Assembly (NCBI GenBank): GCA_965219095.1
Contig: CBDCMT010000001.1
Coordinates: 320,001-384,000, forward strand
Direction of reading: 5' to 3'
Length of the DNA stretch: 64,000 bases
Source of the DNA: Bdellovibrionales bacterium
GTDB taxonomy: Bacteria > Bdellovibrionota > Bdellovibrionia > Bdellovibrionales > UBA1609
The position numbers and the translations under genes are program-made. Under the pieces are notes generated by a model. The model did no database searches, was not told the DNA's origin, and saw nothing but the letters and a program-made list of their open reading frames with translations. Position 1 is the stretch's first letter. Every line of letters starts with the position of its first letter. Below are positions 3,128 to 50,175 of the stretch, in pieces.

Positions 3128-4645
3128 GGCTCCTCCCGGGAATCTGTGGGTGAAAAGTAGTAGAAATCCCCCAAAAAGGCTCATATTAATCAAAGCAAGA
3201 GTAAGACATTCTATCTTGTATTTTTGAGTTCTTTGAGGCCTTACTGGCCTCTATCACCTCCGGTGATTGAACTCAAAAACATTCATTTTATTTGCTTTTA
3301 TTTGCTGTGTTACATTAAAATTTTAAAAAAGAAGCACCTACTTCCCAGATGCCTTAAAATGTTATTCAAAAAAAAAAAAAAGGAGGGAAGAGATGCTTTT
3401 GAAGACTATACTAAATGATTGTTTAAGATGGAAGTCTTTTGTGTACGAAGACATTTATTTTTCAAAAGATAGAAAGTCAATTAATGTTCCTATTAAGGCT
3501 CGTAAAAATGGCCAAGCTTTTTGTAGTGTTTGTAAGAAGCCCTGTTCAGTGTATGACAGCAGTAAATCATCACGGGACTTTGAATCCCTTCCTATTTTAA
3601 GTTACAGGGTGTTTTTTGTTTATTTTGTAAGAAGAGTTAATTGTCCTTGCTGTGGGGTAAAAGTTGAGTATTTACCTTGGGCCGATGGTAAGAAGAGTTT
3701 AACGATCTTTTACATGAAGTACTTAGCAGACTGGTGTCGTCACCTGTCTTGGAAAGAGGTTTCTTGTAAGTTTCATGTCAGTTGGAATCAGGTCTATGCT
3801 TCGGTAGAATGGGTCGTAGAATATGGTTTAAAACAAAGGGTTTTAAAGGGGATATATGCTATAGGAGTCGACGAGATACAATGGAAAAAGAACCATCAGT
3901 ATCTCACCTTAGTCTATGAAATAAGCAAAGAAAGTGTTCGTTTGCTATGGATAGGAGAAAAAAAACAGAAAAGAGTTTTAGAAAATTCTTTGATTTACTA
4001 GGAGAGAAGTCAAAAGAGATACGGTTTGTGTGCTCTGACATGTGGAAGCCTTATTTAAAAGTCATAAAGGAGAGGGCAAGTCAAGCTTTGAATATATTAG
4101 ATCGGTTTCATATCGTAGCAAGACTCAATAAGGCTTTAGACGAAGTGAGAGCTTCAGAACACAAAAAAATGAAAGAAGATGGGTATGAACCCCTTTTAAC
4201 AAAAGCTAGATGGCCCTTGTTAAAAAATGCAGAAAATTTAAAATCTTATGAAAAAGTAAAATTAAGGCATTTAATACAGTACAATTTAAAAAGTATCCGC
4301 TGTTATTTTTTAAAAGAAGACTTCCGACAGTTATGGACCTATGTTTCACCAACTTGGTCTGGTAAATTTATAGACAGTTGGACGAGACGAGTCATGCTTT
4401 CAAAAATTGAACCTATGAAAAGAGAAGCAAAAACCATACGAAGACATAAGCTACTTATTCTTAATTACTTCAAGGCTAAAAAAACCTTCTCCTCAGGGAT
4501 TGTAGAGGGTTTAAACAACAAAGTAAAACTCACTATGAGAAAATCTTACGGCTTTAGAACCTCTAAAGCTATAAAAATCGCCTTATATCATAACCTTGGA
4601 AAACTGCCAGAACCTCCGGGAACCCACAGATTCTTTTGAGGAGGC
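3128..4645 (+). mobile_element. ISL3-family IS
   Basis: Ends ggctcctcccgggaatctgtggg / cccacagattcttttgaggaggc flank a zinc-finger + DDE transposase. Confidence 0.9.
3393..4639 (+). pseudogene. ISL3 transposase, split at an A8 run near 3958-3965
   Basis: ORFs 3393-4001 (CxxC, IGVDE) and 3947-4639 (CSDMW, DRFH, VEGLNNKVK..R..YGFR). Confidence 0.85.
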
Positions 4646-4650
4646 ATTTT

Positions 4651-4688
4651 GCCTCCTCAAAAGAATCTGTGGGTTCCCGGGAGGAGCC
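4651..4688 (-). mobile_element. 38-bp ISL3-derived mini element
   Basis: gcctcctcaaaagaatctgtgggttcccgggaggagcc is both ISL3 ends fused; identical at 50081-50118. Confidence 0.85.
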
Positions 4689-19116: not shown

Positions 19117-19193
19117 GGCGGGGTAGCTCAGTTGGTTAGAGCACTAGAATCATAATCTAGGTGTCGTGGGTTCAATTCCCTCTCTCGCCACCA
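19117..19193 (+). tRNA. tRNA-Met(CAT), elongator-type; ICE integration site
   Basis: 77-nt cloverleaf: GGCGGGG/TCTCGCC acceptor, CTAGA-ATCATAA-TCTAG anticodon arm, TTCAATT T-loop, encoded CCA. Confidence 0.93.
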
Positions 19194-20970
19194 ACCGTGA
19201 TAACGGACGAACCCAGGAACGATTAAGTTCCCTTTCTTTATTTTCTTGAAAAATAGAGTTTTTCTGCTTTGAATCAAGATGAAAATTCTGTGTTGGTGCT
19301 AACCCATAGCACTCCACATAAATTCCTTCACGAGCTACTACCACTTTCCGTAGAATGTTTTTTAAGACTTCTCTTTGTTGACGTGGAGGGAGATTAGGGA
19401 ATTTTTTATTAAAAGCTCTTAGCAGAGAAAAGGCACTTCTTAGATCAATAATATTACTTGAAATCATTTTTCTTTCTTGAACGAGGCTTCCTATCTCTTC
19501 TTCTAAAACCTCTTTTTCACTTTCCAGCTCTTCTAGCTTCTTCATAAGAATTTTAGTGGATTTAGCTTTAGGAGCTTCTGAAATCGCTGAAATGATTCCT
19601 TCTATTTTACTTCTTATAGCCTTGTGCTTTTCTTTTACTGACTGTATCAACCCATCTTTATAGCTTGAGTTTTTAAATTTGCCTTCATTATTTTCGTAGA
19701 TAAGAGACTTAAGAAGCTTCTGATCCTCTTTCAATCGCTTCAACCCAGCTAGCACTGCTTCTTCTAGCTGAGGGGCGGAAATGCTTTCTAAGATACACCG
19801 TTGAGTGTGTCTGTCTCCTTGATTGAGCATTTTTCTTTTGTGGCTGTAATAGTAGTATTTTCCGCCTCGTCCTTTTCCTGATTTTCCTACAAACTTCTCC
19901 CCACATTCTTTGCAGTAAACAAAACCTTTAAGCCTATAATTATGAACATATTTTCTGGTTTCTTTTTTATTGTTCTCAAGCATGGATTGAACATCATAAA
20001 AAAGCTCTTCTGAAATAAGAGCCTGCCACTGAGCTTGAAATACCTGATAACGGTCTTCTTCTTTGAGTGTTTCTTGATCGAGGTGGCGGTTTTCTTTATT
20101 AAGCTCTCTTTTTCCGATATAAACAAGATTAGTGAGTGTTCTTTGTAAAGAGCCTATGGTGAATCTATGACCTCCATAAATTTTTCCTGTCTTAGTGGTA
20201 TATTCTTTTGTCTTATAGCCATTTTGATTGAGGTATTTACAAGTTTTAGCCAATGTTCCAAGCTCAAAGTATTTGTTGAAGATAAGTTGTACAATGCCTT
20301 TTTCTTTTTCATTGATCACGAGATGGCATTTTTTTGAAGGGTGGGATTCGTAACCTAAAACAGGAACACCTCCATTAGCTAGACCTCTTTCTGCTCTTGA
20401 TCTACTTCCATTTTTAATTCTCTGAACAATGTTCTTTCTTTCAAATTGAGCAAAGTTAATAATGCTTAAAACCATCATCTCACCTGCTGGAGTGGAGGTG
20501 TCAAAACTTTCTTTAAGGGAAATAAGTTTCACATTATGACTTTGAGTAAATTCCCAAAACTGACAAAAGTCCTTTACATTCCTATTGAGCCTTGAAAGCT
20601 CTGTCACTATGATCGCATTGATATAGCCTGAAGTAATATCGGCACACATTTTTTTAAAAGCAGGACGGTTCATGTTACCACCTGAATAATCTTTATCTGT
20701 ATACCACTCCACAATCTCCCCCCAATTTTTTTCTTGAGAGTTTTTGAGTTGGACAAAGTTTTTGATTTGTTGAGGGTGAGAGACAAGAGAGCCTTCCTCT
20801 CTTATTTCATCTGAGGGAGAAAGTCTTATGTAAGCTCCTATTTTATAGCTTAAGTTTTTCTTCGAGTTTTTGATCAAATTTTGAGAGACTTTTCCTTGAG
20901 CTATCTCCCTCCATGACAAAGAGAATTTGTCTTGTAAGCCTTTTGATTCTTTTTTCATTTTCCTCCTCAC
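19150..20970 (-). CDS. Large serine recombinase (integrated-form allele)
   Basis: AYIRLS catalytic motif, D..YSG...NRP, LSRLNR, recombinase domain, CKECG zinc ribbon, coiled coil; last 12 aa read antisense through the tRNA. Confidence 0.95.
   Translation of the reverse strand: MRRKMKKESKGLQDKFSLSWREIAQGKVSQNLIKNSKKNLSYKIGAYIRLSPSDEIREEGSLVSHPQQIKNFVQLKNSQEKNWGEIVEWYTDKDYSGGNMNRPAFKKMCADITSGYINAIIVTELSRLNRNVKDFCQFWEFTQSHNVKLISLKESFDTSTPAGEMMVLSIINFAQFERKNIVQRIKNGSRSRAERGLANGGVPVLGYESHPSKKCHLVINEKEKGIVQLIFNKYFELGTLAKTCKYLNQNGYKTKEYTTKTGKIYGGHRFTIGSLQRTLTNLVYIGKRELNKENRHLDQETLKEEDRYQVFQAQWQALISEELFYDVQSMLENNKKETRKYVHNYRLKGFVYCKECGEKFVGKSGKGRGGKYYYYSHKRKMLNQGDRHTQRCILESISAPQLEEAVLAGLKRLKEDQKLLKSLIYENNEGKFKNSSYKDGLIQSVKEKHKAIRSKIEGIISAISEAPKAKSTKILMKKLEELESEKEVLEEEIGSLVQERKMISSNIIDLRSAFSLLRAFNKKFPNLPPRQQREVLKNILRKVVVAREGIYVECYGLAPTQNFHLDSKQKNSIFQENKERELNRSWVRPLSRLVAREGIEPTTPRL
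19188..19969. repeat. 782-bp direct repeat, copy 1
   Basis: Identical by eye to 49299-50080 (offset 30111). Confidence 0.95.
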
Positions 20971-26508: not shown

Positions 26509-28995
26509 TTAATCGGGTTTAGAAGCTGTGCCCCTTAAAATGGGTTTCCAAGCTTTTTTAAATTGACTTGCTAGCTTTTGAGCTTTTGCAATTTGCGAAG
26601 GAGTCATGTTATTTTTTAGTATAGATAATGCTTTTCTTACAGCTACTTCTAATTTACCATGCGCTTGAACTTTTGATAAAATAAGCCATTTATAAGCCTT
26701 GATGTAATCCTGTAAAACTCCCTCTCCTAAAACATACATCACACCAAGATTAAACTGAGCTTTTGCATCTCCTTGTTTTGCTGCCTTCTTATACCAATAA
26801 ACTGCTTTTTTGTAGTCTTGTAAAACGCCCTTTCCCTTAACATACATCACACCAAGATTAAACTGAGCTTTTGCATGTCCTTGTTTTGCGCTACTTTCAT
26901 ACCAATAAAAGGCTTTTTTGTAATCTTGTGAAACGCCTTTTCCCTTATAATACATCACACCAAGATTAAACTGAGCGCCTGCACCTTCTTGTTTTGCTGA
27001 CTTTTTCCACCAATAAACTGCTTTTTTGTAATCCTGTAAAACTCCCCTTCCCTTATCATACATCACACCAAGATTATACTGAGCTTGTGCATACCCTTGT
27101 TTTGCTGACTTTTTCCACCAATAAACTGCTTTTTTGTAGTCCTGTAAAACTCCCTCTCCCTTATAATACATCACACCAAGATTATTCTGAGCTTCTGCAA
27201 ATCCTTGTTTTGCGCTACTTTCATACCAATAAACTGCTTTTTTATCGTCCTGTAAAACTCCCTGTCCCTCATCATACATCACACCAAGATTATTCTGAGC
27301 TTCTGCAAATCCTTGTTTTGCGCTACTTTCATACCAATAAACTGCTTTTTTATCGTCCTGTAAAACTCCCTCTCCCTTATAATACATCACACCAAGATTA
27401 TTCTGAGCTTCTGCAAATCCTTGTTTTGCGCTACTTTCATACCAATAAACTGCTTTTTTATCGTCCTGTAAAACTCCCTGTCCCTCATCATACATCACAC
27501 CAAGATTATTCTGAGCTTCTGCAAATCCTTGTTTTGCGCTACTTTCATACCAATAAACTGCTTTTTTATCGTCCTGTAAAACTCCCTGTCCCTTATCATA
27601 CATCACACCAAGATTATACTGAGCTTCTGCAAATCCTTGTTTTGCGCTACTTTCATACCAATAAAAGGCTTTTTTGTAATCTTGTAAAACGCCTTTTCCC
27701 TTATAATACATCACACCAAGATTATACTGAGCTTCTGCAAATCCTTGTTTTGCGCTACTTTCCAACCAATAAAAGGCTTTTTTGTAATCTTGTAAAACGC
27801 CTTTTCCCTTATAATACATCACACCAAGATTATTCTGAGCTTGTGTAAGTCCTTGTTTTGCGCTACTTTCCAACCAATAAAAGGCTTTTTTGTAGTCTTG
27901 TGAAACGCCTCTTCCCTTATCATACATCACACCAAGATTATACTGAGCTTGTGTAAGTCCTTGTTTTGCGCTACTTTCATACCAATAAACTGCTTTTTTG
28001 TAATCCTGTGAAACGCCTCTTCCCTTATCATACATCCCACCAAGATTATACTGAGCTTCTGCATGTCCTTGTTTTGCGCTACTTTCATACCAATAAACTG
28101 CTTTTTTGTAATCCTGTAAAACTCCCTGTCCCTTAGCATACATCACACCAAGATTAGACTGAGCTTGTGCATACCCTTGTTTTGCTGACTTTTTCCACCA
28201 ATAAACTGCTTTTTTGTAGTCCTGTAAAACTCCCTCTCCCTTATAATACATCCAACCAAGATTAAACATATCTTTTGGAGTTTTTTCCTTTTTTTCCTCG
28301 TACAATGAAAACTCTCTTTTAAAGTCCTTTTCTGTTTTTTTAAGCTTCTTTTCTAAATCTAAACGAGAAAGTTTGATAAGCTGTTTTTTATTTCTAGAAA
28401 TAAGTTCTTTCAGTAATTTTATAGAAACAGCAAAATTTAAATTTTGGGATTTTTCATGCTCACCTATCACAACTCCAATCACTTTAAATTTTTTAGAAAA
28501 AACAGGAGAACCACTGCTTCCTTTCGAAATTGAAGCTGTTATTTGAAGTAAATTTTGTTTTCTTTTTGCAGATACAATTCCCTTAGAAAGGCTTCCTACA
28601 AATCCTTGTGGAGAGCCTATAACAAAAATATCATCTCCCATTTTAACATTATTGTAATTTCCTATTTTTAAAGGCGTGTATATTTTTTTAACTGTCTTAA
28701 TGATTGCAAGATCGTTCTCGGAATCATAAGCAACAACAATACCAGACCCTTTCTTCCCCTCTTGAGTAACAAAAAAGATAACACCTTTATCCGCCTCTTT
28801 GACAACATGGTAATTTGTAACAAGGAGACTTCTTTCTATAAAAAAACCACTACCCATACCATGGGCATGAATAATTGTTGCTGTTGATTTAGCAACTGTT
28901 TCAAAGTTTGATGTATAGGCTTTAGACACAAAAAAAGTACAAAATATAAAAAGAGAGTATAGTATGACTTTTTTGGTTTTAAGATGTGTTCTCAT
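26509..28995 (-). CDS. Secreted trypsin-like serine protease with 15 Sel1 repeats
   Basis: Signal peptide; TNYHV, DLA and GSSGSP triad; 36-aa AQxNLGVMY repeats. Confidence 0.92.
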   Translation of the reverse strand: MRTHLKTKKVILYSLFIFCTFFVSKAYTSNFETVAKSTATIIHAHGMGSGFFIERSLLVTNYHVVKEADKGVIFFVTQEGKKGSGIVVAYDSENDLAIIKTVKKIYTPLKIGNYNNVKMGDDIFVIGSPQGFVGSLSKGIVSAKRKQNLLQITASISKGSSGSPVFSKKFKVIGVVIGEHEKSQNLNFAVSIKLLKELISRNKKQLIKLSRLDLEKKLKKTEKDFKREFSLYEEKKEKTPKDMFNLGWMYYKGEGVLQDYKKAVYWWKKSAKQGYAQAQSNLGVMYAKGQGVLQDYKKAVYWYESSAKQGHAEAQYNLGGMYDKGRGVSQDYKKAVYWYESSAKQGLTQAQYNLGVMYDKGRGVSQDYKKAFYWLESSAKQGLTQAQNNLGVMYYKGKGVLQDYKKAFYWLESSAKQGFAEAQYNLGVMYYKGKGVLQDYKKAFYWYESSAKQGFAEAQYNLGVMYDKGQGVLQDDKKAVYWYESSAKQGFAEAQNNLGVMYDEGQGVLQDDKKAVYWYESSAKQGFAEAQNNLGVMYYKGEGVLQDDKKAVYWYESSAKQGFAEAQNNLGVMYDEGQGVLQDDKKAVYWYESSAKQGFAEAQNNLGVMYYKGEGVLQDYKKAVYWWKKSAKQGYAQAQYNLGVMYDKGRGVLQDYKKAVYWWKKSAKQEGAGAQFNLGVMYYKGKGVSQDYKKAFYWYESSAKQGHAKAQFNLGVMYVKGKGVLQDYKKAVYWYKKAAKQGDAKAQFNLGVMYVLGEGVLQDYIKAYKWLILSKVQAHGKLEVAVRKALSILKNNMTPSQIAKAQKLASQFKKAWKPILRGTASKPD
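26700..28270 (-). repeat. 108-bp tandem repeat x15 (Sel1 coding)
   Basis: caagatt recurs every 108 bp from 26745 to 28257. Confidence 0.95.
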
Positions 28996-29792: not shown

Positions 29793-32483
29793 TTATTGGT
29801 ATTTAGTAAAAGATTCTATAAGGTTTTGGAAGTTACTAGGTCGATATTTTTTGAAGCTTTCTTCATCAACAAAAATAAAGCTCCATTTAGTGGAAAATCC
29901 CTGATTGTTTATGTCTTTGCACCATTGTTTGAGGCGGCTTAATTTCAATGGATCATTTAAGTCTTCTCTCCCTTTAGTTTCTATGACAAATGCTTCTTTA
30001 TCAGTTCTTTTGACTAAAAAATCGGGATAATAGTTCCTTATACTGTCCTCATTATCAACATAATCAAGTTTAAAGTTTAGGGCAAAGTAGAGCTTTGTAT
30101 AAGAAATTATGTCGTCACAACTTTCTAAAAAGGCTGCAAATTCATTTTCAAGCTTATTATCTCCTGCAATCTTATTAAAAATACTTTTTTTAGGGATAAT
30201 GCACTCCTTTTCTTTGCTTATGAAGGGACGAGTTTTAATTAGCTCAATATGATGGCCACTCAATTCAGCAGTCTCTTTTTCCTTTACAGTTAAGGAATTT
30301 ATCTCTTTCTTAAATGTCTCAATAATTGTCTTTGTGACATTAATTTCTGATAGGTTTAAAACTGTCTTTCTTTCTTCTAAATCTACAGGATTTTCAAAGA
30401 GCTGTTCCCTCACAAACTCTTTAACCTTTCCATAAATAATATGATAGCCACTTACAAGCCTCAGTTCTTTCATGATAGTATTTGCAAAAAAACCTAAAGC
30501 ACTGCTGGCATCAATTTCACTGCCATCTAAAATAGTTGTATGGGAATAAGGTTCTTCATTTTCTTTTTTGACCATGTATTTAAAATGTATTTCTCTTGTT
30601 TCAGAATCTTCTAGTTTCTTTAACTTACATTTAGTAAATTTAAATTTACTAGGTGCGAGAAGAGAAAGGTCTTTATGATCCCTAAAAGTTCTTGGTGTTA
30701 AAACTGGTATATTGATATCTAGTTTTAGCAGATCTTTATTGGGGTTTTGTTCATCAACTTCAATAATAATGGGGCACTTTGGCTCAGTTTTATCTCCCAT
30801 TTCCTCTATTTTAAGCTTTACTCCCTCCTTTTCAACACTCTCTACAAACTCCATGAATGCAGGGGTTCCGATTACACTTACTTTTTCCTCAGCATCAGGG
30901 TTTTCTCTATACATTAACCTTAAACCTCGTCCCAAAGCTTGTTCTGGCAAGATATTGCTTTTTGAACTATACGCTCTCAAACCTACAATGGTAGTAACAT
31001 TTTTAACATCCCACCCCTCTTTTAAAACTAAAACAGAAACAATAGCCTTATAAGGGCTTTCAAGACTATCAATTTTATTGGCCTGTTCTCTTAACTTATC
31101 GAGTTCCTCTTTTTTCTTCCCACTTTGAGCCTCTGAAATTTCTCCATTGTTTTTAGTATGAATTGCCAAAACAGCACCCTTTAAATAGGAATAGGTATTT
31201 TCAAGGTAGGAAGCTACATCATCACAATTTCTAGTATCATCTGTCATGATAAAAAGTATGGATTTTTTATTAAGCTTTATATTTTCATCATAAGCTTTTT
31301 TCCATTCAATAACCCCAAGGTTTATAAAATCAGCGTACTTTTCTACATACTTTGAAGTTTTCTTTTCTTTAAGTTTTTTTCTACTCTCTTTATCAGGAAG
31401 AACTGGATGTTTTACTATGTTTTGAGCAATAGCTTCAACTAAGGGATAGTCTGCAATTGTTTGTATAAAAATTGAACCATTATTATGCTTTGGAGTTGCT
31501 GTTACATCAATTTGCATGGATAAAAATTTATCTTTTTGGACGAGCCTATTATGAATGTCCTCAATAGATTTAAACCAAGCCTTTTTAGGATCATGAATAT
31601 GATGAGCTTCATCATTAATAACAACAAGTTCATCAATGTCTCTAACAATATCACCTAAATCTACTGTTGAATCTGTGGTTTTTGCAACTGGTTTACCTCC
31701 TAAAAAATATGCAGTAGTGTCCTCGTCATCAAAAGAAGCAGGGATGTTATCACTAGAGTAAACCCTATGAATGTTTGTTAAAAAAACATTGCCATATTCT
31801 TTAACATTTCTAATCTCATCTTGAATATGAAGGGTTGGTTGAAAATCATTTTGCCAATTTCTTCCATTGTGTCCATTTCTAGGAAGAATAGGATCATTAT
31901 AAAAAATTTTAAACCCATCAAAGTCTGATCTCAATCTATCTAACACAATTATATTAGGAGCGATTAAAAGAAAGTTTCTTGCAAGTTCTGAGTGTTCTTC
32001 GTAGGTTTTATGAAAATATGACCAAGCTAAAAGTAAGCTTATGACCTTAGTTTTGCCTGAGCCTGTTGCCATTTTTATAACAAATCGCCTCCAATTTTCT
32101 TCAAACCATTGAGAGGAAATGTTTGCATTAGAAAATTGCAATAAATCTTCATGGCCTTTAACTTGAGCTACATCATAGAGGTAAATTATAGTTTCCACCG
32201 CTTCTCTTTGAGCAAAGTAATAGCGAAAGTATGAAAGCATTCCTCCATTCTCTAGAATATGTTCTTCTTCAAACCACCAGTTTAAAAGAGTTTTGCTAGT
32301 CTCGCTTGCACCTTCATATTTATTCCCTCTCCATTGATACACTTTTTTTCTTAAAGTATGAACAAAGGGAGCCAAGAGTTTTTTATAAACACTTTCTTTT
32401 ATAAGTTGCTCAGAAGGTAACCAACGAATATCTGGTTTTAAAATAGCATGAGGGGATGTAGGAAAATTAGATTGTAATGCCAT
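29793..32483 (-). CDS. res: Type III restriction endonuclease subunit
   Basis: MATGSGKT, DEAHH, EGWDV, QALGRGLR and YYPDF...IETKG motifs. Confidence 0.92.
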   Translation of the reverse strand: MALQSNFPTSPHAILKPDIRWLPSEQLIKESVYKKLLAPFVHTLRKKVYQWRGNKYEGASETSKTLLNWWFEEEHILENGGMLSYFRYYFAQREAVETIIYLYDVAQVKGHEDLLQFSNANISSQWFEENWRRFVIKMATGSGKTKVISLLLAWSYFHKTYEEHSELARNFLLIAPNIIVLDRLRSDFDGFKIFYNDPILPRNGHNGRNWQNDFQPTLHIQDEIRNVKEYGNVFLTNIHRVYSSDNIPASFDDEDTTAYFLGGKPVAKTTDSTVDLGDIVRDIDELVVINDEAHHIHDPKKAWFKSIEDIHNRLVQKDKFLSMQIDVTATPKHNNGSIFIQTIADYPLVEAIAQNIVKHPVLPDKESRKKLKEKKTSKYVEKYADFINLGVIEWKKAYDENIKLNKKSILFIMTDDTRNCDDVASYLENTYSYLKGAVLAIHTKNNGEISEAQSGKKKEELDKLREQANKIDSLESPYKAIVSVLVLKEGWDVKNVTTIVGLRAYSSKSNILPEQALGRGLRLMYRENPDAEEKVSVIGTPAFMEFVESVEKEGVKLKIEEMGDKTEPKCPIIIEVDEQNPNKDLLKLDINIPVLTPRTFRDHKDLSLLAPSKFKFTKCKLKKLEDSETREIHFKYMVKKENEEPYSHTTILDGSEIDASSALGFFANTIMKELRLVSGYHIIYGKVKEFVREQLFENPVDLEERKTVLNLSEINVTKTIIETFKKEINSLTVKEKETAELSGHHIELIKTRPFISKEKECIIPKKSIFNKIAGDNKLENEFAAFLESCDDIISYTKLYFALNFKLDYVDNEDSIRNYYPDFLVKRTDKEAFVIETKGREDLNDPLKLSRLKQWCKDINNQGFSTKWSFIFVDEESFKKYRPSNFQNLIESFTKYQ

Positions 32484-34621
32484 TACTTTATCTTAACCTC
32501 TTCAATTTTTATGGTGTCATTTCCAAAAATATCAATAACTTTTACTGCAATTTTTACCACAGATTTATTGATTTCATGAAATGGAGATTTTAGCTCTAAT
32601 TTTCTGTCCTTTCTAGTTCTAAAGGCTTGCCATTCATTTTCAAAGATATAATCTCCTGACCATTGCTCTTCAATATCTCCAGTATCAGGGTTTGTTACTC
32701 TTATGATTTCTTTTTTGCTTTCAAAATCAAAATCTATACTCCAATAATCAATCCAATCACTCCATTTTTTAGTTAATACATCTTGCTTTGATTTTCCCTC
32801 TTTATCTGTAGAAATTTTAATAATTTTTCCACCACTTAAAATAACCTTTGAACTGTTCTTCTTCATACTTTGAATAGTTTGTTCTATAGAGTCTTGAGAG
32901 TAATAGACAGAAAAGTCTTTAAGCTCTACAGCCACTTTGCCTTTTTTATAATGAAATTTTACCTCAATGTAAGAGATATCATGAAATGATACTTGATTCT
33001 TCTCAACTGCCCTTTTATCAAAAACTTCTTTTGGTATATATTTTATAGCTAGATCAATTCCTCTTTTTTTCGCTTCATCTAAAAGCATAGGAAAAAGACC
33101 CATCTCAAATTCAAAGCCTAAAATATCAGCCTTTGTGATTTTATTTTTAATACACTCACTGATAACTTCATCAACAAATAAGCGATTAACTGGTAATGTT
33201 ACGGGGCCAATAGCAATAACTCGTCCTTGCTTTTTTCCATGAAATATAGGGCTTTGAGACATAGCTTCTGCCCCATAAGCTTTTAAAATAAGAGATACAT
33301 AATCTTTTTCTTTTTGTTTTAATTTGTTGTCTTGAGTTCTTCCATCAAAATCACTATTAACTCCAATATAGTGCTGCCTTTCATATTTACCAAGATTTAA
33401 GATTTCAAAAGCTCGGTAATCTTTATTTTCTTTTTTTAACTCCCTTTGAATGGAGATCATTCTTTTTCGAGTAGTGTGGATAGAGAATTTTCCAAGATCA
33501 GTTCCGATCCACTTACGTCCTAGTTTTTCTGCAACTGCACAAGTTGTACCTGAGCCACAGAAGAAGTCTGCTATAAGATCATCTTCATTAGAAGAAGCTT
33601 TGATAATACGTTTGAGAAGTGATTCAGGTTTTTGGGTTGGATAACCTGTCTCTTCCTTGGCTCTATGGGATAGGTGCATAGAATATGTTTGCTTTATATC
33701 ACTCCAAACCGTTGATAATGGTACGCCGTGAGACTTATCTAAATACTGCTTTTGTACTAAACCATTTGCTCTTTTTCTTGTTCGGTATCTTCTGCCATTT
33801 TCATCTACATAACAAAATCTTTCGTCAATATATTTTTTTGAATATGGCAAATATATCTTATTCTCTATTCTATTTCTATAATTTTTAGCAAAATGAAGAA
33901 TATACTCATGAACTTTGACAATTTTTGTTCCAGAAGCACGTCCACCAGATGGTGTACCATATGACCATATAGTTTCTGACACTAAATTTTCTTTCCCAAA
34001 AATTTCTTGAAGAGCGATTCTCATATAATGATTAACTTGGATACCAATATGGACATAAATAGTTCCATCGTCAGATAATAGATCTTTCATCAAACAAAGC
34101 CGTTCATAAATCATTGCAATAAAAGAATCAGTTCCTTTTTTCCAAGTATCTCTATAAGCAAGCTCCTCTAAAACATTTGGTTTTTTTGTAAAAGTATCTT
34201 CACCAATGTCAACTTTCATTGAAAAATCAGCTCCCACATCAAAAGGAGGATCAATGTAGATGAGTTTTATTCCACCTTGAGCTTCAATTTCATCTCTTAA
34301 GTGACCATTTTTTAAAGAAGATAAGATGAGTTTGTTATCTCCCCAAATAAGCTTATTCGTCCAACCCTTAAGTTGACGACCAGTTTCAAGATCAAAAAAA
34401 CTCCTCTGTAAACTCTTATCTTGTTCAAAACGAGGTTCATCTACATGTTCAATAGTCTGAAAGGGAAGAACCACATTGCAAACTTGGTTAGTTTTTCCGT
34501 TCCAAACAAGCTCAACCTCTCTTTTGTCTTCAAACAGTAAAAATCGGTAATGGTCTGGCAGAGGTTTTCCAGCTTCTAAAATCTTGGTTAGGTCTCTTAT
34601 TTCATTTTCTGAAAGCTTTAT
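32483..34621 (-). CDS. mod: Type III DNA methyltransferase subunit (5' start anomalous)
   Basis: IYIDPPF, YPTQKPE and DFFCGSGTT motifs; frame stays open 49 codons upstream of GTG 34474 to an ATA at 34621. Confidence 0.88.
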   Translation of the reverse strand: MKLSENEIRDLTKILEAGKPLPDHYRFLLFEDKREVELVWNGKTNQVCNVVLPFQTIEHVDEPRFEQDKSLQRSFFDLETGRQLKGWTNKLIWGDNKLILSSLKNGHLRDEIEAQGGIKLIYIDPPFDVGADFSMKVDIGEDTFTKKPNVLEELAYRDTWKKGTDSFIAMIYERLCLMKDLLSDDGTIYVHIGIQVNHYMRIALQEIFGKENLVSETIWSYGTPSGGRASGTKIVKVHEYILHFAKNYRNRIENKIYLPYSKKYIDERFCYVDENGRRYRTRKRANGLVQKQYLDKSHGVPLSTVWSDIKQTYSMHLSHRAKEETGYPTQKPESLLKRIIKASSNEDDLIADFFCGSGTTCAVAEKLGRKWIGTDLGKFSIHTTRKRMISIQRELKKENKDYRAFEILNLGKYERQHYIGVNSDFDGRTQDNKLKQKEKDYVSLILKAYGAEAMSQSPIFHGKKQGRVIAIGPVTLPVNRLFVDEVISECIKNKITKADILGFEFEMGLFPMLLDEAKKRGIDLAIKYIPKEVFDKRAVEKNQVSFHDISYIEVKFHYKKGKVAVELKDFSVYYSQDSIEQTIQSMKKNSSKVILSGGKIIKISTDKEGKSKQDVLTKKWSDWIDYWSIDFDFESKKEIIRVTNPDTGDIEEQWSGDYIFENEWQAFRTRKDRKLELKSPFHEINKSVVKIAVKVIDIFGNDTIKIEEVKIK

Positions 34622-38991: not shown

Positions 38992-39340
38992 TCCTCTTAA
39001 AGTAGAGTTGGTATTTTATATCAGGGAGGTTTGCAGAGAAAGTGCTTGGATTGACAAGGCTTGATAATTTATCAGAAAGATAGTTGTCTGGTTTTCCTTT
39101 TTTAGCAAAATAGAGAATTATGGCCAAAACTAATGTTCCTAGCCATACGAGAGGAATTTTTAGAGTTGTTTGTCCAAAGAGTAGGTTGCTGATTGAGAGA
39201 TAAAGGAAAATTAAAAGTAAGTCTATGAGTTCAAAACCGAGGAGTTTTAGTTTGTTTTCGAGTTGGCGTGGGGTTTTTGAGGTAAATAATGACACAAAGC
39301 ACCTCCCGTCCTTTGATTTAAACTTATAAAATATTACCAT
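38948..39340 (-). CDS. VirB3-like membrane protein (true start probably near 39295)
   Basis: Two TM helices, K.LGFEL and GKPDNYL motifs; directly upstream of VirB4. Confidence 0.62.
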   Translation of the reverse strand: MVIFYKFKSKDGRCFVSLFTSKTPRQLENKLKLLGFELIDLLLIFLYLSISNLLFGQTTLKIPLVWLGTLVLAIILYFAKKGKPDNYLSDKLSSLVNPSTFSANLPDIKYQLYFKRNAYEYKQTNTSKKL

Positions 39341-40383
39341 TGTTTAGCATGAAAGATCAGAATAAAAAAGCTATAGAAGAGCAGAATAGAAAGCTTATGA
39401 AGCCCTTTAAAAGTAGTAGTCTCATAATAAACACTTTAGAAAATAGTGGATTAACAAAAGCTTTAAAGGCTATGGAAGAGCAGAATAGAGAGCTTATGAA
39501 GCTCTTTAAAAATAATAGTAGTCTCACAATAAACACCTTAAAAAATAGTGGATTAACAAAAGCTTTAAAAGCTATAGAAGAGCAGAATAGAGAGCTTATG
39601 AAGCCCTTTAAAAATAATAGTAGTCTCACAATAAACACCTTAAAAAATAGTGGATTAACAAAAGCTTTAAAAGCTATAGAAGAGCAGAATAGAGAGCTTA
39701 TGAAGCCCTTTAAAAATAGAAGCCTAATAAATACCTTAACAAAGGTAGGCTTGGAAATTCAAGAACTAGAGAAACGAAAGAAAATACCCCCCTCTATAGA
39801 AAGAGATAATCACTTGTACGGTAAGTTTCTAACTTTCCATAAGACCTTAGGTGAAAAAGTCGATTACCTAAAAGCCTTAGGAAAATTTTTAGATAAAGAA
39901 ATATTAACAAAAATTTTAGAAATTTGGAAAACAGATACTCTCTTTAGAGAAAGGGCTGAGATATTTTTAGATGCTTTTCTAAACCATTCAGAAAAAAGAT
40001 ATACTGTTTCAATTCCTGCACTATTGCCACATATAGAATTTCTTTGCTTATCTTTAATTAATAAAGAGAACAAAAGATTTAACAAAGAAATAAAGGAGAT
40101 ATTTTATAAAACATTTAGCAAGTGTTCTCCTTCGGAAAGCCTACCTTTTTCTAAGTATAAATTCTTTTGTCAAAATCATAAGGAGCTTTTTTCATGCGAA
40201 GATAAAACACAACCAGATTTCTTGAATAGACATAAGGTTTTACATGGAAAGGATATTAAGTATTATAAGAAGTCGGATAACTCTTTAGTATGTATTATAA
40301 TTCTAGATATACTTTTCTATATGAGAAAAGAGCTAAAAGAGGAATTTTGTTCTGCATTAGAATCAATGAACAATGAAAACTAA
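39340..40383 (+). CDS. Repeat-containing protein with a HEPN-like C-terminus
   Basis: About 3.5 x 35-aa repeats; NRHKVLHG (Rx4H). Confidence 0.6.
   Translation: MFSMKDQNKKAIEEQNRKLMKPFKSSSLIINTLENSGLTKALKAMEEQNRELMKLFKNNSSLTINTLKNSGLTKALKAIEEQNRELMKPFKNNSSLTINTLKNSGLTKALKAIEEQNRELMKPFKNRSLINTLTKVGLEIQELEKRKKIPPSIERDNHLYGKFLTFHKTLGEKVDYLKALGKFLDKEILTKILEIWKTDTLFRERAEIFLDAFLNHSEKRYTVSIPALLPHIEFLCLSLINKENKRFNKEIKEIFYKTFSKCSPSESLPFSKYKFFCQNHKELFSCEDKTQPDFLNRHKVLHGKDIKYYKKSDNSLVCIIILDILFYMRKELKEEFCSALESMNNEN
39365..39742 (+). repeat. 102-105-bp tandem repeat (~3.5 units)
   Basis: gaagagcagaatag recurs at 39376, 39475-39478, 39577-39583 and 39678-39688 region. Confidence 0.85.
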
Positions 40384-40525: not shown

Positions 40526-42773
40526 CTATAGTAATTTACTAAATATTGAATCTAAATATTTATCAGAAACTTCAAATGTTTTTTTTGATGACGGATAATA
40601 TTCATCACTTTCGCAAAAAGAAACCTCTTCTTCCCTTTCTCTGGCTAATTTCTCTAATTCTCCACTAAAATCACTAAGATAACCATAAGTACTTTCTAGA
40701 TCTTCAAGCTCTCCAGAAACCTCTCTTATCTCTTCAGCACTATAATGACACCCACTATATTCTTCACACATGTCTTTAAGATAGCTTAAAACCTCATTCT
40801 CTACATTTTCTTTAGTATTTGAGTCAATTAAGCTAGAGAACATATCAAGGAATTCTTTTATAGAAATATAATCTTTCGCCTCATTAATGTTTGAACAGAT
40901 TGCTTCTTCAGCCGATTTTATTATAGGTTTTTTTATATCAAAATAAAGAAAAGGGTTTTTTTCAAATGCACTAAAGCACAGAAGAACTTCTTGTACAGAA
41001 ATAGGAGAACTATGCATAGGGTTTTGAAGATGTTTTTTAAAGTTATTTAATAGCCCTTTAAAAAAGGCATCATTTTTTTTTTATAAACCCCTTTGAAAGA
41101 TCGAGTTTAAATATAGAAGAAAATATACTTTCAAAGTTTAAGCCATTTCTGCTATTAAGACCAGTAATTTCTAAAATTTTTTCTTGTACACCTGTATCTG
41201 TAAGGATCTTTTCAAAAACCTTATTGCCGGAGGAAAGCAAAAAAAATCTTTCTACCTGCGACGGATAAATAGAAAAACATATTGAGTCACGCATTAAATT
41301 TAAATTTTCTTTAAAATGATTTTCCATAAAATCATTTACAGAAGGATTGGTAAATCGTATTTCATTTTTTCCCTTTTCATAAGATATAAAAGATCTCTCT
41401 GATTCTCTCAATGCTTTCTTAAAGTCATCATAAGAATGTCGATCGTTATCACTGTTTTCAACCATTTTGTTCCGTAAGTAGTTATAGGCTTCTTCTAGCT
41501 TCTCAACAGAAATTCCCCCTCTAAACGAAGCAATAGATAATATTAAGTGTTGAGAGAAGGGACTTAGTTTCTTAAATGCATATTCCCAAATACTTTTTGG
41601 ATTATCTAAGTTAGAAATAAAGTGCTCACTATAATTTTCAGAAGTAATGCCTTGTAAATCTAGATGACTTTTTTCTGTCATTGTTTCTATAAGCCTTGGG
41701 TTGAAATTTTTATGACGAACGACCTTTAGATAGGTTTTCCGTTTAACAAAGTTTTCAATATGAACTTTGTCTATATCAGAGTGAAGTAAGTGATTATAAA
41801 GGATATGCGCCTTATCACAGTCACTATACTTATCTAACTTTAAGATATACTTATTTATATCTAGTGAGCTTTGAGAAAATCTCTCTGAAAAGCTGTATGC
41901 CTGTTGCAAAACATACTCCCTAGTTGTTAATATCATTTTGTGAGTTTTATTATTTCTAGATACCTCATGAAAAAATTTTAAAATTGTAGAGTCTTCATTT
42001 TTCTCTAAATGATTTTCAAGAAAAGTCATTCCTAAAAAATCATCATAATAGAATATGGTTTGTCTCCTAGAGTTTAAAAACCTATAACCTTCCTGAATAT
42101 TGCTGGAAATTTTAAAAAAATTATACCCTCTTCCGATATAATAAAGACATAACATTTCAGCTAGCGTAGTTTTGCCCACTCCTGGTTCTCCTGAAATAAT
42201 GCAAAAATTTTTATCATCTAAAAACTTTCTAGTGTCTTCAAAAGATCTATTATTTACGTAAACTTTTAATTTTTCTTTTAACTGTTTTTCCTGTATTTGT
42301 GACTCAGCAACAACCCCTCTATTTAGAATTTTTTCTAAAATGCTTGTGCTTCCTATCCATAATTTAAAGTGAGACTTCTCTATTTCTGGATATTTTCTTA
42401 GCATTGTATTAACATCTTCATTACCATAGACAGTAGAATTTTCTACGCATTGTCTTAAAATTATTAAAAGATCTTCTTTCTGACGTGGACTAAGCTTACA
42501 TGATGTCGCTAGAGTATAATGAGAAAGTTTTAATTCTTTAATTTTAGTTATCTCTTTTGTTTTAATCTGAGATTTTAATGAATGGAAGTTACTATAATGC
42601 TTGCATTAAATAATATGTTGCTCTCCACTTTTCTCATAAAATCTTGCATCAATTCCTTGATCTTTTCCTAATTTAAAACTTTCTATATGAGGAATATCAA
42701 GGTGCTTTTGCAATAAATCGACCATTAAGGATTCAAAGTCTAAAGGAGATAAGTTATCAAAAGTGTAGCTCAT
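40526..42773 (-). pseudogene. Mrr-like nuclease + STAND (nSTAND3-like) NTPase defence gene, disrupted
   Basis: MSYTFDNLSPLDFE..GKDQGID..II*CKHY (TAA at 42606-42608); GEPGVGKTT, YDDFLG, ILTTRE and NPRLI motifs; frameshift in the T10 run 41073-41082. Confidence 0.8.
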
Positions 42774-46270: not shown

Positions 46271-48595
46271 TTGAAAGAGGGCGATTTATTGATAAAAAAA
46301 ATTATTAACATAAAAAATCTTGGTATATTTAAAGATTATAATTCACCCAGTTCTTTACCTGAATTTAAGAGATATAACCTTATTTACGGTTGGAATGCAT
46401 CTGGAAAAACTACGTTATCAAAACTGTTTGAATCTCTAGAAACTGGGGCGAACAAGGATTTTCCAGATTTAAAATATAAAATAAAAGTTTCTAACTCTCC
46501 AAGTAAAGAGATAAAAGAGAGCATTGCTTATCCAAAAAAAATAAAAATCTTTAATAAGGAGTATATTGCAAAAAATGTTCAAATTGAGGAAGGTCGAGCA
46601 AAGGCCATAGTTTTTCTTGGGGAAGATAATAAGAAATTATCTGAAGAAATAAAAACAGATGAAGAGAGCCTTACGAAACTTAAAAAGGAACTAGAAGAAT
46701 TACAAAAAAATGAAAAAAAAACAGAAAAAGCAAAAGGGGAAATATTTACTTCAGTAGCACGTACTATAGGAGAAGCCATAGGCGGAAATGCCAGGAGGGA
46801 TTATAAAAAGAATAATGCAGAAGAAGGGTTTGATACATTTTTTAACAACAAGGGGGTAACTGATGAGATTTTAGATGATGATCAAATAGAAGTTTTTTCA
46901 GATACTTGCAAGCAAGACATTCAAGATAAACTAGATGAAATCTTAACACCTTCTTTTCATATAAATGGAGCTACTAAATCTCTTTCTGAAGCTGTAAATA
47001 CGCTTTTAGACAAAGGCACAAAGCTGTGTCTTCAAAAAATCAATGTAGTAGCTATTGAAAGACTGAAAAAGAACTCCGATATTTCAGGATGGGTTGAAAA
47101 AGGACTTTCTTTGTATAAAAAACATAACTCAGAAAATTGTGAATTTTGTGCTCAAGAAATAACAAAAGAGAGATTAAGTGATCTTGAATCTTATTTTAAT
47201 GAGGCCAGTAATAAAGCAAAAAAAGAAATTAACTCCATTTTAGAAAAATTTAGAGAAATTTGTAATGGTATAAAAAATATAAATCCACCAGATAAAGCAC
47301 GACTTTATAAAGAATTTCAAAACCTCTATCAAGAAAGTGTGCAAGCACTTGAACAAAAGAGAGAAAATACCTTAGAAGAAATTAAAGACTTAGAAAAAGT
47401 TTTAAATAATAAAAAGGAGCGAGTGAGCAAAGAAATCGAACTAGAAAACAACGTATCAATATCCGATCTTTTATCTGAAATTGAACCTGTTAATAATTTC
47501 ATTGAACAACATAATGAAAAAACAATAAACTTTGGGGCAAAAAAAATAGAGGCTGAAGACAAGATAAAAAAACATCATTTGGCAAATATTTATAATAATG
47601 TGAAAGAAAAAAATAATGAGCTACAAAGTTTTCAAAACGAAATAAAAAAAATCAATGATGGGAGTAATGAAAGCCCTGGGGCAGCTTTCCTTGAAAAGAA
47701 AATTGAAGCTAACAAATCTAAAATATCTTCAGTTCATAAGAGCTGCAAAGAAATAAATGAAAAACTAAAAGCTTTTTTGGGAAGAGATGAAATTTCTTTT
47801 GAAGTAGGTGAGGGCGACGAATTTTTTTCTCTCAAACGAAGAGGTGAAGATGCAAAATATCTCTGTGAAGGGGAGAAAACAGCAGTGGCTCTGGTGTATT
47901 TTTTAGTTAGCCTAAAAGAAAAAGGAATTGAACTTTCTAACACCATTATTTTTATTGATGATCCAATTTCTAGCTTAGACTCCAATTCAATATCACAAGC
48001 CTTTGCGTTTATAAAAAGAGAGATAGATTCATCATATCAAGTTTTTATTTCTACTCACAATTATAACTTCTTTAAAAAAGTAAAGGGATGGCTGGATGAT
48101 AAAAGAAACAAAGGGTGTAAAGAAAATGAAAAAGCAGAATTTTTTATGGTAAAAAACTTAGTAAGGGATGACAATAGAGAGGCTATAATATGTCCTTTGG
48201 ATGATCTAATAAAAAAATATAATTCAGAATACCAATACCTATTTAGCGTGATCAAGAAAGCAGTAGACAATGAAAGTCTAGATGATGCTAAAGAGTGGTA
48301 CCCTCTTCCTAATATGGCAAGGAAATTTTTAGAAATCTTTCTTGCATTTAAAATTCCTTCAGAAAATGTTTTTAGCTCTCAATTAAGTATGTTTTTTAAA
48401 AAAACAGGCTTTAACGACGCTAGTAAAAGAAATAAAATTGAGAGTTTCCTAAATGAAAAATCACACTTTTTTCCAAATGGAATTGAAGGTTTTGATTTAG
48501 ATAATCTATCCGAGTGTAAAGGAGTTTTACAAGATATACTCCTTTTGGTTGAAAATACAGACAAAGAGCATTATGAAGAACTTAAGAAAATATAA
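46271..48595 (+). CDS. AAA_13 / RloC-like ABC ATPase with zinc hook
   Basis: GWNASGKTT, CEFC hook in a coiled coil, LCEGEK, IDDPISSLD, STHN; C-terminal NMARKFLE and NEKSH. Confidence 0.82.
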   Translation: MKEGDLLIKKIINIKNLGIFKDYNSPSSLPEFKRYNLIYGWNASGKTTLSKLFESLETGANKDFPDLKYKIKVSNSPSKEIKESIAYPKKIKIFNKEYIAKNVQIEEGRAKAIVFLGEDNKKLSEEIKTDEESLTKLKKELEELQKNEKKTEKAKGEIFTSVARTIGEAIGGNARRDYKKNNAEEGFDTFFNNKGVTDEILDDDQIEVFSDTCKQDIQDKLDEILTPSFHINGATKSLSEAVNTLLDKGTKLCLQKINVVAIERLKKNSDISGWVEKGLSLYKKHNSENCEFCAQEITKERLSDLESYFNEASNKAKKEINSILEKFREICNGIKNINPPDKARLYKEFQNLYQESVQALEQKRENTLEEIKDLEKVLNNKKERVSKEIELENNVSISDLLSEIEPVNNFIEQHNEKTINFGAKKIEAEDKIKKHHLANIYNNVKEKNNELQSFQNEIKKINDGSNESPGAAFLEKKIEANKSKISSVHKSCKEINEKLKAFLGRDEISFEVGEGDEFFSLKRRGEDAKYLCEGEKTAVALVYFLVSLKEKGIELSNTIIFIDDPISSLDSNSISQAFAFIKREIDSSYQVFISTHNYNFFKKVKGWLDDKRNKGCKENEKAEFFMVKNLVRDDNREAIICPLDDLIKKYNSEYQYLFSVIKKAVDNESLDDAKEWYPLPNMARKFLEIFLAFKIPSENVFSSQLSMFFKKTGFNDASKRNKIESFLNEKSHFFPNGIEGFDLDNLSECKGVLQDILLLVENTDKEHYEELKKI

Positions 48596-48828: not shown

Positions 48829-49299
48829 TTATAATTTATCTTTCCATCGTTTAAATATTCTTTTCACAGTAGTGTGATGCCAAGAGATAACTCCTCTGCG
48901 ATTTTTAAATCCTTTATTTTGAAGCTCTGAGATAATGGCTGTTAAGGAAAGTCCTTTCTTTTTTAAATGAACCACAAGACGACAAACTTTTAACTCCGAC
49001 TGATTCACTAAAAGCTCGCTGTTTTTTCCTCGTCTGAAACCATAAGGGACACGAGGTAAACGGTAATTTTTAGGATTTCTCAACTTTTCCAAAGATCTCT
49101 TAGTAGATATGCCAGAGCGCAACAAAAGTTTTCTGATTTGATGGTTTGAAACATCCAACTGTTTAGCAATCTGGCTTATAGACAGACTCTTTTTTTCATA
49201 AAGTTCCTTAAAAACCTTAGAATCTATGGCTTGTATTTTTGGGAAAAACTCAATAAAATAAACATAATAGAGCAGGTTGTTCTGTTGTCGTGGTCTATC
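48829..49299 (-). CDS. 156-aa HTH + recombinase-domain module fused to the recombinase across attP
   Basis: LSISQIAKQLDVS HTH; VPYGFR....N..E......GLSLTAI...L...G...RRG..W....V.RI; contains no Met. Confidence 0.8.
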   Translation of the reverse strand, partial: DRPRQQNNLLYYVYFIEFFPKIQAIDSKVFKELYEKKSLSISQIAKQLDVSNHQIRKLLLRSGISTKRSLEKLRNPKNYRLPRVPYGFRRGKNSELLVNQSELKVCRLVVHLKKKGLSLTAIISELQNKGFKNRRGVISWHHTTVKRIFKRWKDKL

Positions 49300-49324
49300 C
49301 ACCAACCGTGATAACGGACGAACC
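49275..49324. other. attP-type junction
   Basis: 50-bp imperfect palindrome (14/20 complementary outer pairs) centred on CC 49299-49300, where identity to the tRNA junction begins. Confidence 0.8.
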
Positions 49325-50080
49325 CAGGAACGATTAAGTTCCCTTTCTTTATTTTCTTGAAAAATAGAGTTTTTCTGCTTTGAATCAAGATGAAAATTCT
49401 GTGTTGGTGCTAACCCATAGCACTCCACATAAATTCCTTCACGAGCTACTACCACTTTCCGTAGAATGTTTTTTAAGACTTCTCTTTGTTGACGTGGAGG
49501 GAGATTAGGGAATTTTTTATTAAAAGCTCTTAGCAGAGAAAAGGCACTTCTTAGATCAATAATATTACTTGAAATCATTTTTCTTTCTTGAACGAGGCTT
49601 CCTATCTCTTCTTCTAAAACCTCTTTTTCACTTTCCAGCTCTTCTAGCTTCTTCATAAGAATTTTAGTGGATTTAGCTTTAGGAGCTTCTGAAATCGCTG
49701 AAATGATTCCTTCTATTTTACTTCTTATAGCCTTGTGCTTTTCTTTTACTGACTGTATCAACCCATCTTTATAGCTTGAGTTTTTAAATTTGCCTTCATT
49801 ATTTTCGTAGATAAGAGACTTAAGAAGCTTCTGATCCTCTTTCAATCGCTTCAACCCAGCTAGCACTGCTTCTTCTAGCTGAGGGGCGGAAATGCTTTCT
49901 AAGATACACCGTTGAGTGTGTCTGTCTCCTTGATTGAGCATTTTTCTTTTGTGGCTGTAATAGTAGTATTTTCCGCCTCGTCCTTTTCCTGATTTTCCTA
50001 CAAACTTCTCCCCACATTCTTTGCAGTAAACAAAACCTTTAAGCCTATAATTATGAACATATTTTCTGGTTTCTTTTTTA
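49299..50080. repeat. 782-bp direct repeat, copy 2 (start of a truncated tandem ICE copy)
   Basis: Matches 19188-19969. Confidence 0.95.
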
Positions 50081-50118
50081 GCCTCCTCAAAAGAATCTGT
50101 GGGTTCCCGGGAGGAGCC
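50081..50118 (-). mobile_element. 38-bp ISL3-derived mini element
   Basis: Identical to 4651-4688. Confidence 0.85.
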
Positions 50119-50175
50119 AACTTTCTCTTTAATGAACATTGTTCTTTGCTTTCTTTTTTCATAACTTTGTTTGTT

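Follow-up and report, generated by a model that had tools for sequence, protein, structure and literature searches.

The closest described parallel to the system considered here is DsiB, a CcrB-like serine recombinase of the ssrA-specific genomic islands of Dehalococcoides (McMurdie et al., 2011, PMC3146451). In the parts of that paper on which we draw, the 3' end of the dsiB open reading frame (ORF) always overlaps the attachment site attL, tandem islands occur, and it is suggested that the gene may reach full function only when it is on the circle or has a neighbouring island to provide the 3' fragment; its authors thought the overlapped part unlikely to be functional, and these same parts describe no conserved detached tail or domains (PMC3146451). 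Here, we analysed 64,000 nucleotides (nt) of a Bdellovibrionales genome (assembly GCA_965219095.1, contig CBDCMT010000001.1; C2:320001-384000 when the two contigs of the source genome are named C1 and C2), which we call the window and to which positions without a contig prefix refer. Within it, a conjugative element, one unit of which measures 30,111 bp, adjoins a tRNA-Met gene and carries a large serine recombinase (LSR) gene at its edge. DsiB and the window enzyme resemble each other, description against description, as large serine recombinases at an island edge with an ORF that runs over attL, and the window recombinase likewise has CcrB as its top NCBIfam match, at a score under the cut-off; they differ in target, which is tmRNA for DsiB and tRNAs here.

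Among tyrosine recombinases, the Mx8 IntP/IntX and SSV integrases extend across the attachment site attP (Islander paper, 2014, PMC4383910), and in the "suicidal" integrases of the SSV family integration splits the integrase gene (PMC7253208), as stated in the cited portions of both sources. These systems share with the window element an attP inside the integrase ORF, with integration altering the gene in Mx8 and splitting it in SSV; however, their chemistry and fold are unrelated, and what becomes detached here is a two-domain DNA-binding module of 156 amino acids (aa). Among the integrases compared that have attP within their ORF (Mx8, SSV and DsiB), only DsiB belongs to the same enzyme class as the window recombinase. 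In the integration-dependent immunity of mycobacteriophages, attP also lies in a gene whose product depends on the integration state, but the gene that is split is a repressor and not a recombinase. Canonical LSRs (LI/A118, SPbeta SprA, Bxb1, and phiC31) have in common with the window enzyme the domain order Resolvase, Recombinase, and Zn ribbon, and a palindromic site of about 50 bp. Their attP, in contrast, is not within the gene, and they mostly insert into protein-coding genes; to our knowledge, none of them has an extra module of a helix-turn-helix (HTH) plus a recombinase domain (RD) after the zinc ribbon. As to target choice, the relevant passage of the 2014 paper states that targeting of tRNA genes was not known among serine integrases (PMC4383910), and that of a 2017 review states that integrative and mobilizable elements with serine recombinases insert within genes (PMC5704250).

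Compared with these systems, the window element is quite probably an integrative and conjugative element (ICE) of a CcrB-like LSR family whose insertion site is the CCA end of tRNA genes and whose attP lies in the recombinase ORF, so that the circle would encode an enzyme of 750 aa and the integrated form one of 606 aa. The overlap of a serine integrase with attL (DsiB) and tyrosine integrases that extend across attP were known already; what appears to be new is the detachable HTH-plus-RD tail, of which no published description was found in a search that left most subscription journals outside its range.

The recombinase gene and its two junctions

The enzyme is a large serine recombinase by its catalytic domain, Recombinase domain and Zn ribbon (Pfam Resolvase PF00239, E = 3.3e-30; Recombinase PF07508, E = 3.7e-19; Zn_ribbon_recom PF13408, E = 1.2e-10). 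An alignment of 15 family members shows no variation at R49, S51, R127, and R130, of which R49 and S51 are catalytic, and residues 444-527 give only weak coiled-coil-type Pfam matches. As the original prediction had stated, the 606-aa protein ends in ...LSRLV-AREGIEPTTPRL and a stop codon, its final 12 aa being read antisense through tRNA-Met; both points were re-derived from the ORF and tRNA coordinates. At this attL-type end the predicted central dinucleotide lies at 19188-19189, identity to the far junction ends at 19188, and the sequence common to the tRNA and far junctions is TGGTGG, the antisense of the CC-A-CCA end of the tRNA.

At the far junction, ...LSRLV continues in frame as DRPRQQ..., the beginning of a tail of 156 aa without a single Met, and the 594 recombinase residues and the tail add up to 750 aa. 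These details too had been predicted, and all of them could be re-derived from the ORF at 48829-50139. The top dyad symmetry within +/-150 nt is centred on the 49299 junction, where 15 of the 24 arm positions match against a background mean of 6.7 (sd 2.3), and the GG at the centre of the palindrome closes codon 594 and opens codon 595. Identity between attP and the target site attB is short, with shared cores of 4-10 nt; the locus thus shows the site layout of serine integrases, namely an imperfect palindrome of ~40-50 bp with a central dinucleotide and very short attP/attB identity. Around the attP-type site, a search for accessory repeats returned just short AT-rich matches, none convincing. 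Because the palindrome lies at codons 594/595 within the recombinase ORF, the circle is predicted to read through to 750 aa. The ORF, tRNA, and junction alignments bear out the claim that the crossover site is inside the recombinase ORF, and the integrated and free forms are accordingly marked by different predicted C-termini, with the detached 3' part standing in phase at the other end of the element (8 of 8 pairs from relatives and 3 of 3 local junctions, as detailed below). That integration would split the recombinase gene is well supported.

The 49299 junction had been taken for an attR, and this part of the original prediction does not stand. A direct repeat of 782 nt, 100% identical and spaced 30,111 nt, places a second copy of the recombinase 3' end there (Table 1), and since the tail joins this second, 5'-truncated recombinase copy, the junction is of attP type and not an element-to-chromosome attR. 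The second copy ends at 50080, exactly at the start of a terminal repeat of an insertion sequence (IS) or miniature inverted-repeat transposable element (MITE), and the resulting ORF of 436 aa is composed of about 20 foreign residues, recombinase residues ~334-594, and the 156-aa tail. Among six word-index matches to this ORF, obtained by an insensitive search, none had a contiguous tail, the relatives being recombinases of 501-610 aa. A 320-nt query from 50081 gave 215 blastn-short matches in the genome, and its 24 best non-self matches all fell on the first 30-40 nt. The 38-nt terminal repeat forms back-to-back inverted pairs in places, e.g., at ~4614-4688, and other IS fragments have 150-240 matches.

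The sequencing data compared were assembled contigs from four runs (X1-X4). An assembly artefact at 49299 was ruled out by bridging contigs from two studies, one of 7343 nt from X1 that reaches 50080 and one of 6573 nt from X4 that extends 488 nt into the recombinase; the contigs of X4 gave no cover at 49852-49965 or right of 50194. In X2 and X3 the word depth of the 782-nt repeat was raised, which is not readable as copy number. The local copy is a tandem, IS-truncated, and probably immobilised example of the family, and its junction may have arisen by integration of a tandem dimer, by a second integration, or by homologous integration into an older tRNA-plus-recombinase remnant; remnants of this kind exist at C2:1881407-1881815 and C2:2200093-2200341.

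Two paralogous elements of the source genome, E2 and E3, have the same architecture, and the tail is in frame at all three local junctions. In E3, the recombinase (C2:751159-752847) runs into tRNA-Pro, and a 346-nt copy of the recombinase 3' end (97.7% identical; C2:719256-719601) continues in frame into the tail. In E2, the recombinase (C1:150851-152533) runs into another tRNA-Met, while an IS-interrupted copy of its 3' end (~515 nt, 96-97% identical) is followed by an in-frame tail ending at C1:129421; here too, the truncated recombinase copy adjoins an IS. Dyad matches reach 14 of 24 in E3, and the site of E2 was not top-ranked. Relative to the TGG of the CCA end, the codon phase is xTG Gxx in the window element and xxT GGx in E2 and E3, and recombinase and tail agree each time. 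Elsewhere in the same genome, tRNA-Met, tRNA-Ile, tRNA-Ser, and two tRNA-Leu genes have a further recombinase copy or fragment directly beside them.

Some further observations concern these tRNA genes. All three with a CAT anticodon (C1:152605-152681; C2:339117-339193, which is 19117-19193 of the window; and C2:1881380-1881456) are occupied by a serine-recombinase element or remnant. At the junctions C1:152611, C2:1881450, and C2:189919, E2-type recombinase 3' ends, 96-97% identical, stand at two tRNA-Met genes and tRNA-Ile GAT; identity ending after TGGT at three junctions suggests a relaxed target choice centred on the CCA end. Finally, two converging recombinase genes at C2:1837908-1841300, whose 3' ends abut in inverted orientation without a tRNA, are possibly the product of an inversion between att sites.

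Tail fold, relatives, and reading frame

The tail had been described as an HTH followed by a second recombinase-type DNA-binding domain, and Pfam, structure prediction, and Foldseek all support this. Pfam returned HTH_23 at 24.6 bits, equal to the cut-off, and PF07508 Recombinase at 25.0 bits (cut-off 21.1) over profile positions 3-50 of 102. In the AlphaFold2 model (28 homologues; mean pLDDT 87.8) a three-helix HTH is followed by a unit of a beta-hairpin plus helices. The best matches of this model in the Protein Data Bank were serine-integrase/DNA complexes (9dxh_A, E = 6.2e-4; 4kis_D; 9iu8_A; 6dnw_A), with an rmsd of 1.7 over 67 columns against 6dnw_A, and bipartite HTH DNA binders (paired domain, Tc3) were also found. 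In the Foldseek comparison, the second half of the tail superposes on the recombinase domain of canonical large serine integrases. A predicted complex of recombinase residues 205-594 with the tail scored 0.22 against a mark of 0.32 and is counted neither way.

An exhaustive profile-free search gave 477 representative homologues of the tail at E<=1e-3 and 79 at E<=1e-10, and at the latter threshold the tail occurs in 91 of 201 genomes of the same order. The named relatives of the tail locus are metagenome-assembled genomes (MAGs) of Bdellovibrionota, with eight loci coming from a search with a single protein. The dN/dS values of the tail, a check that the original prediction had proposed, were 0.048-0.193 in nine measurable pairs and denote purifying selection; four more pairs were saturated. 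In four MAG loci (L021, L022, L023, and L025) the first ~22 nt of the tail ORF past the core are identical, as expected if this stretch doubles as a recombinase-binding arm of attP. Among these four loci, tail protein identity is 55-57% in three scored cross-pairs and 72% between L023 and L025.

The reading frame was followed in homologous elements, as had also been proposed, and recombinase and tail proved to be in one phase throughout. Pairs were taken when they lay on one contig and one strand, in the expected geometry, and with both junctions retrievable, which left eight: G044:C153 (Val), G044:C81 (Arg), G105 (Met), G187 (Asp), G197 (Asn), G183a (Pro), G183b (Gln), and G205 (Pro). All eight have the same phase in the recombinase at attL and in the tail at attR across a shared core of 6-11 nt, with a tail frame that is open from the core onward, and two different codon phases are in use among them. 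Not counted were G044:C130, with an attP-type far junction and a broken recombinase, a second G205 tail beside a recombinase fragment, and G086 and G101, in which the tail lies away from the recombinase. Chance in-frame continuity was ruled out by the eight pairs and the three paralogues. Moreover, the recombinase frame enters an antisense tRNA in six of seven loci from the four Bdellovibrionota genomes G041-G044 (Pro, Arg, Val, Leu, Arg, and Met), the seventh being a fused frame of 784 aa.

Fused genes of this kind exist naturally. The 784-aa frame is full length and lies on G167:C46, which is the same contig as G041:C46. About 23 kb away, this contig has another recombinase copy in the same orientation, an arrangement consistent with a tandem array. 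Open frames of at least 300 aa numbered six among the 150 order-wide tail matches listed, and four of the six were checked. Recombinase and tail are fused in G201:C57 (747 aa, full length) and in G121:C126 (650 aa, ended by the contig edge), a truncated recombinase precedes the tail in G051:C285 (397 aa) and G112:C9 (327 aa), and the database proteins P0148 (702 aa) and P0032 (286 aa) have the tail fused behind recombinase sequence.

Proposed mechanism and rival accounts

On the free circle, the gene would encode the 750-aa enzyme, in which the catalytic domain is followed by the recombinase domain, a zinc ribbon with a putative coiled coil, and the 156-aa bipartite DNA-binding tail. Once the element has excised or been transferred, this long isoform would be expressed from the promoter that lies upstream of the recombinase. 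Integration would leave the 606-aa enzyme, with antisense tRNA as its last 12 residues, which would behave as an LSR of canonical length, and would leave the tail, now start-less, stranded at the far element end; if that end is a true attR, the tail would have neither a promoter nor a start of its own and hence be silent. In the window, the far junction would have stayed attP-type through a second element copy in tandem or a remnant that served as the target of homologous integration, the second copy being afterwards truncated by an IS. A circle with the 750-aa gene could be regenerated from the local copy only through homologous recombination between the 782-nt repeats.

As to what the tail does, it may add DNA-binding capacity that favours attP x attB, a proposal which we hold with low confidence and which we make because attB keeps only its tRNA half from host to host. 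Indeed, attB consists of the conserved tRNA acceptor/T-arm on one side and a variable host flank on the other, and the site arms end in a GAAC(C) motif that is also supplied by the tRNA T-loop. Still more tentatively, the 750-aa isoform alone might capture the tRNA-based attB and integrate, and loss of the tail would leave an enzyme that no longer attacks tRNA genes and carries out excision only.

Several points weigh against the proposed split of the gene and the role given to its tail. The circle, the empty site, and the 750-aa protein are predictions from the sequence, and a function of the tail in DNA contacts, target capture, directionality, or autoregulation is likewise a proposal. No attR or chromosomal B' flank was found within the window and the far junction is of attP type; therefore, to judge from its layout, the local element as placed could not excise by attL x attR. 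Relatives of the tail were found neither in phage and plasmid collections (tblastn) nor in viral-contig collections (seven-row alignment), though the free form would be expected there. Four of the eight frame-compared recombinases (G105, G183a, G183b, and G205) have internal stops and so are decaying, their phase having been read from the last open segment entering the tRNA, and kin among the compared elements are not independent. Furthermore, three complete genomes, G209, G156, and G185, have an intact tail ORF (G209:C1:2969047-2969490, G156:C1:3044308-3044745, and G185:C1:524659-525096; mutual dN/dS 0.09-0.16) and no resolvase-domain gene. The junctions of G209 and G156 are clean attR-type, also compatible with stand-alone function, and that of G185 is a decayed attP type; these tails are relics, or a hint of the tail working alone. 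Lastly, the TTG/GTG of the core is the start of many homologues, which could therefore be translated independently.

Of the other accounts that we weighed, the one that survives best, unlikely as we consider it, treats the tail as a built-in recombination directionality factor (RDF) that contacts the enzyme carrying it, at the coiled coil or the zinc ribbon, the isoforms with and without tail favouring opposite reactions in the absence of a separate RDF. The cited parts of two papers speak in its favour, since joining an integrase to an RDF in a synthetic fusion switches its direction (Olorunniji et al., 2017, PMC5737554) and motifs of the C-terminal domain control phiC31 directionality (PMC2475636), and neither Pfam on the element ORFs nor NCBIfam brought up a recognisable RDF candidate beside the recombinase. 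The engineered fusions are likewise a C-terminal appendage that alters LSR behaviour; however, that appendage is synthetic and constant (PMC5737554, in the same parts), whereas the tail here would be gained and lost with the integration state. The tail, moreover, resembles a DNA-binding module (HTH plus an RD-like unit), unlike any known RDF, and an RDF-like tail on the circle isoform would favour excision just when integration is needed.

Less probable still, and in our view improbable, is an independent small regulator gene of ~156 aa at the element edge, translated from the core TTG/GTG, with the continuity of frame being incidental. Sizes and annotated starts agree with such a gene: 122 of the 150 representatives listed are of 300 aa or less, most of about 150-170 aa, many begin with MV[DE] or MD, and of 27 database homologues aligned with the window tail, 12 start with MV and 6 with MD, i.e., at the TTG/GTG of the att core. 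The three genomes that keep the tail under selection without a resolvase-domain gene point the same way, although these relic tails may have diverged before the recombinase was lost. Against this, the start codon is forced by the target. The junction TTG/GTG, which the original prediction had named as a possible start of the tail itself, is the antisense of the tRNA CCA end, used as a start by gene callers in many homologues, and a core start is absent in the other codon phase (E2, E3, G044:C153, G183a, and G205). Nor was a conserved start codon, which would have spoken for a separate gene, found at 15 attR-type loci: three of the 15 have no ATG, GTG, or TTG from the upstream stop as far as the HTH, and the remaining loci have starts at varying positions in the host flank. 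There is no conserved ribosome-binding site either, because the upstream DNA is host flank, often with a terminator hairpin; the GC-rich hairpins and A-run just upstream of the core in several loci are the tRNA terminator seen antisense. The phase also matches that of the recombinase in every one of the eight pairs, and no stop separates the two in any fused junction.

That there is no isoform switch at all, with the 436-aa ORF as debris, the split as a neutral by-product of the attP position, and the tail dispensable, is very improbable. A genome full of IS copies and rearrangements and a truncated, perhaps unexpressed local second copy would fit it, but the tail is kept across an order with dN/dS of 0.05-0.19 and the architecture is systematic across paralogues, relatives, and fused frames.

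Feature map, cargo, and significance

The features of the junctions are collected in Table 1. The source genome (two contigs, 3.11 Mb, G+C 34%) has many IS copies.

Table 1. Positions in the window of the recombinase, tail, att sites, and associated features.
Feature	Position	Strand	Basis
tRNA-Met (CAT), intact	19117-19193	+	ARAGORN
tRNA-Met 3' end CCACCA, core common to the attP of the element	19188-19193		Junction alignments
Large serine recombinase, predicted integrated isoform, 606 aa	19150-20970	-	ORF and Pfam
attL-type site, recombinase 3' arm plus tRNA acceptor/T-arm	19164-19213		Offset of 30,111 nt from attP-type site
Conjugative element, one 30,111-bp unit	19188-49298		Pfam on 28 ORFs; repeat spacing
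Repeat copy 1, 3' part of recombinase gene	19188-19969		Identity to 49299-50080
Tail, 156 aa plus stop codon; HTH and RD-like subdomain	48829-49299	-	ORF, Pfam, AlphaFold2, Foldseek
Chimeric ORF, 436 aa: ~20 aa IS-repeat flank, Zn ribbon, putative coiled-coil region, tail	48829-50139	-	ORF, Pfam
attP-type site, 50-bp imperfect palindrome centred on GG (49299-49300), codons 594-595	49275-49324		Dyad scan
Repeat copy 2, 5'-truncated second recombinase copy, ~aa 334-594	49299-50080		Identity; contigs across 49299
IS/MITE terminal repeat, 38 nt, cutting second recombinase copy	50081-50118		blastn-short

Pfam placed type IV secretion system genes between the 782-nt repeats (TrbI, VirB8/TraE, VirB4/TraC, and TrbC pilin) together with a TraG/TrwB-type coupling protein. 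The secretion genes and coupling protein that mark a conjugation element are thus present between the att sites, and the tail indeed lies at the far end of such an element, as predicted. Of the 28 ORFs, 13 have no Pfam match at all, and none matched a relaxase family at E<=1e-4. Other genes of the element encode a sigma-70 region-4 protein and defence-like cargo, namely a DNA methylase with a ResIII helicase/TnsA-like nuclease, an nSTAND3 NTPase, and an AAA_13 ATPase, at 29793-34474, 41070-42404, and 46271-48595. Within the ORF of a trypsin-like protease (828 aa; 26509-28995, minus strand), 15 tandem units of 108 nt at 26600-28411 encode Sel1 repeats, and three to four repeats of about 102 nt at 39366-39730 lie within an ORF without a Pfam match (39340-40383, plus strand).

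For annotation, the "HTH proteins" of ~156 aa that start with MV[DE]RP are best read as detached 3' halves of integrases, and they are precise marks of element ends. The family inserts at the CCA ends of many different tRNA genes, and the cited passages of two papers ascribe such targeting to tyrosine integrases (PMC4383910, PMC5704250).

Serine integrases are valued in genome engineering because they work in one direction as long as no separate directionality factor is added. In this context, a widespread natural clade that gains or loses a DNA-binding module of ~150 residues with each integration or excision would offer a testable, self-contained coupling of enzyme form to element state. If the tail does act as a state-dependent module of specificity or directionality, these tRNA-targeting ICEs with serine integrases would form a clade that is one-way without a classical RDF.

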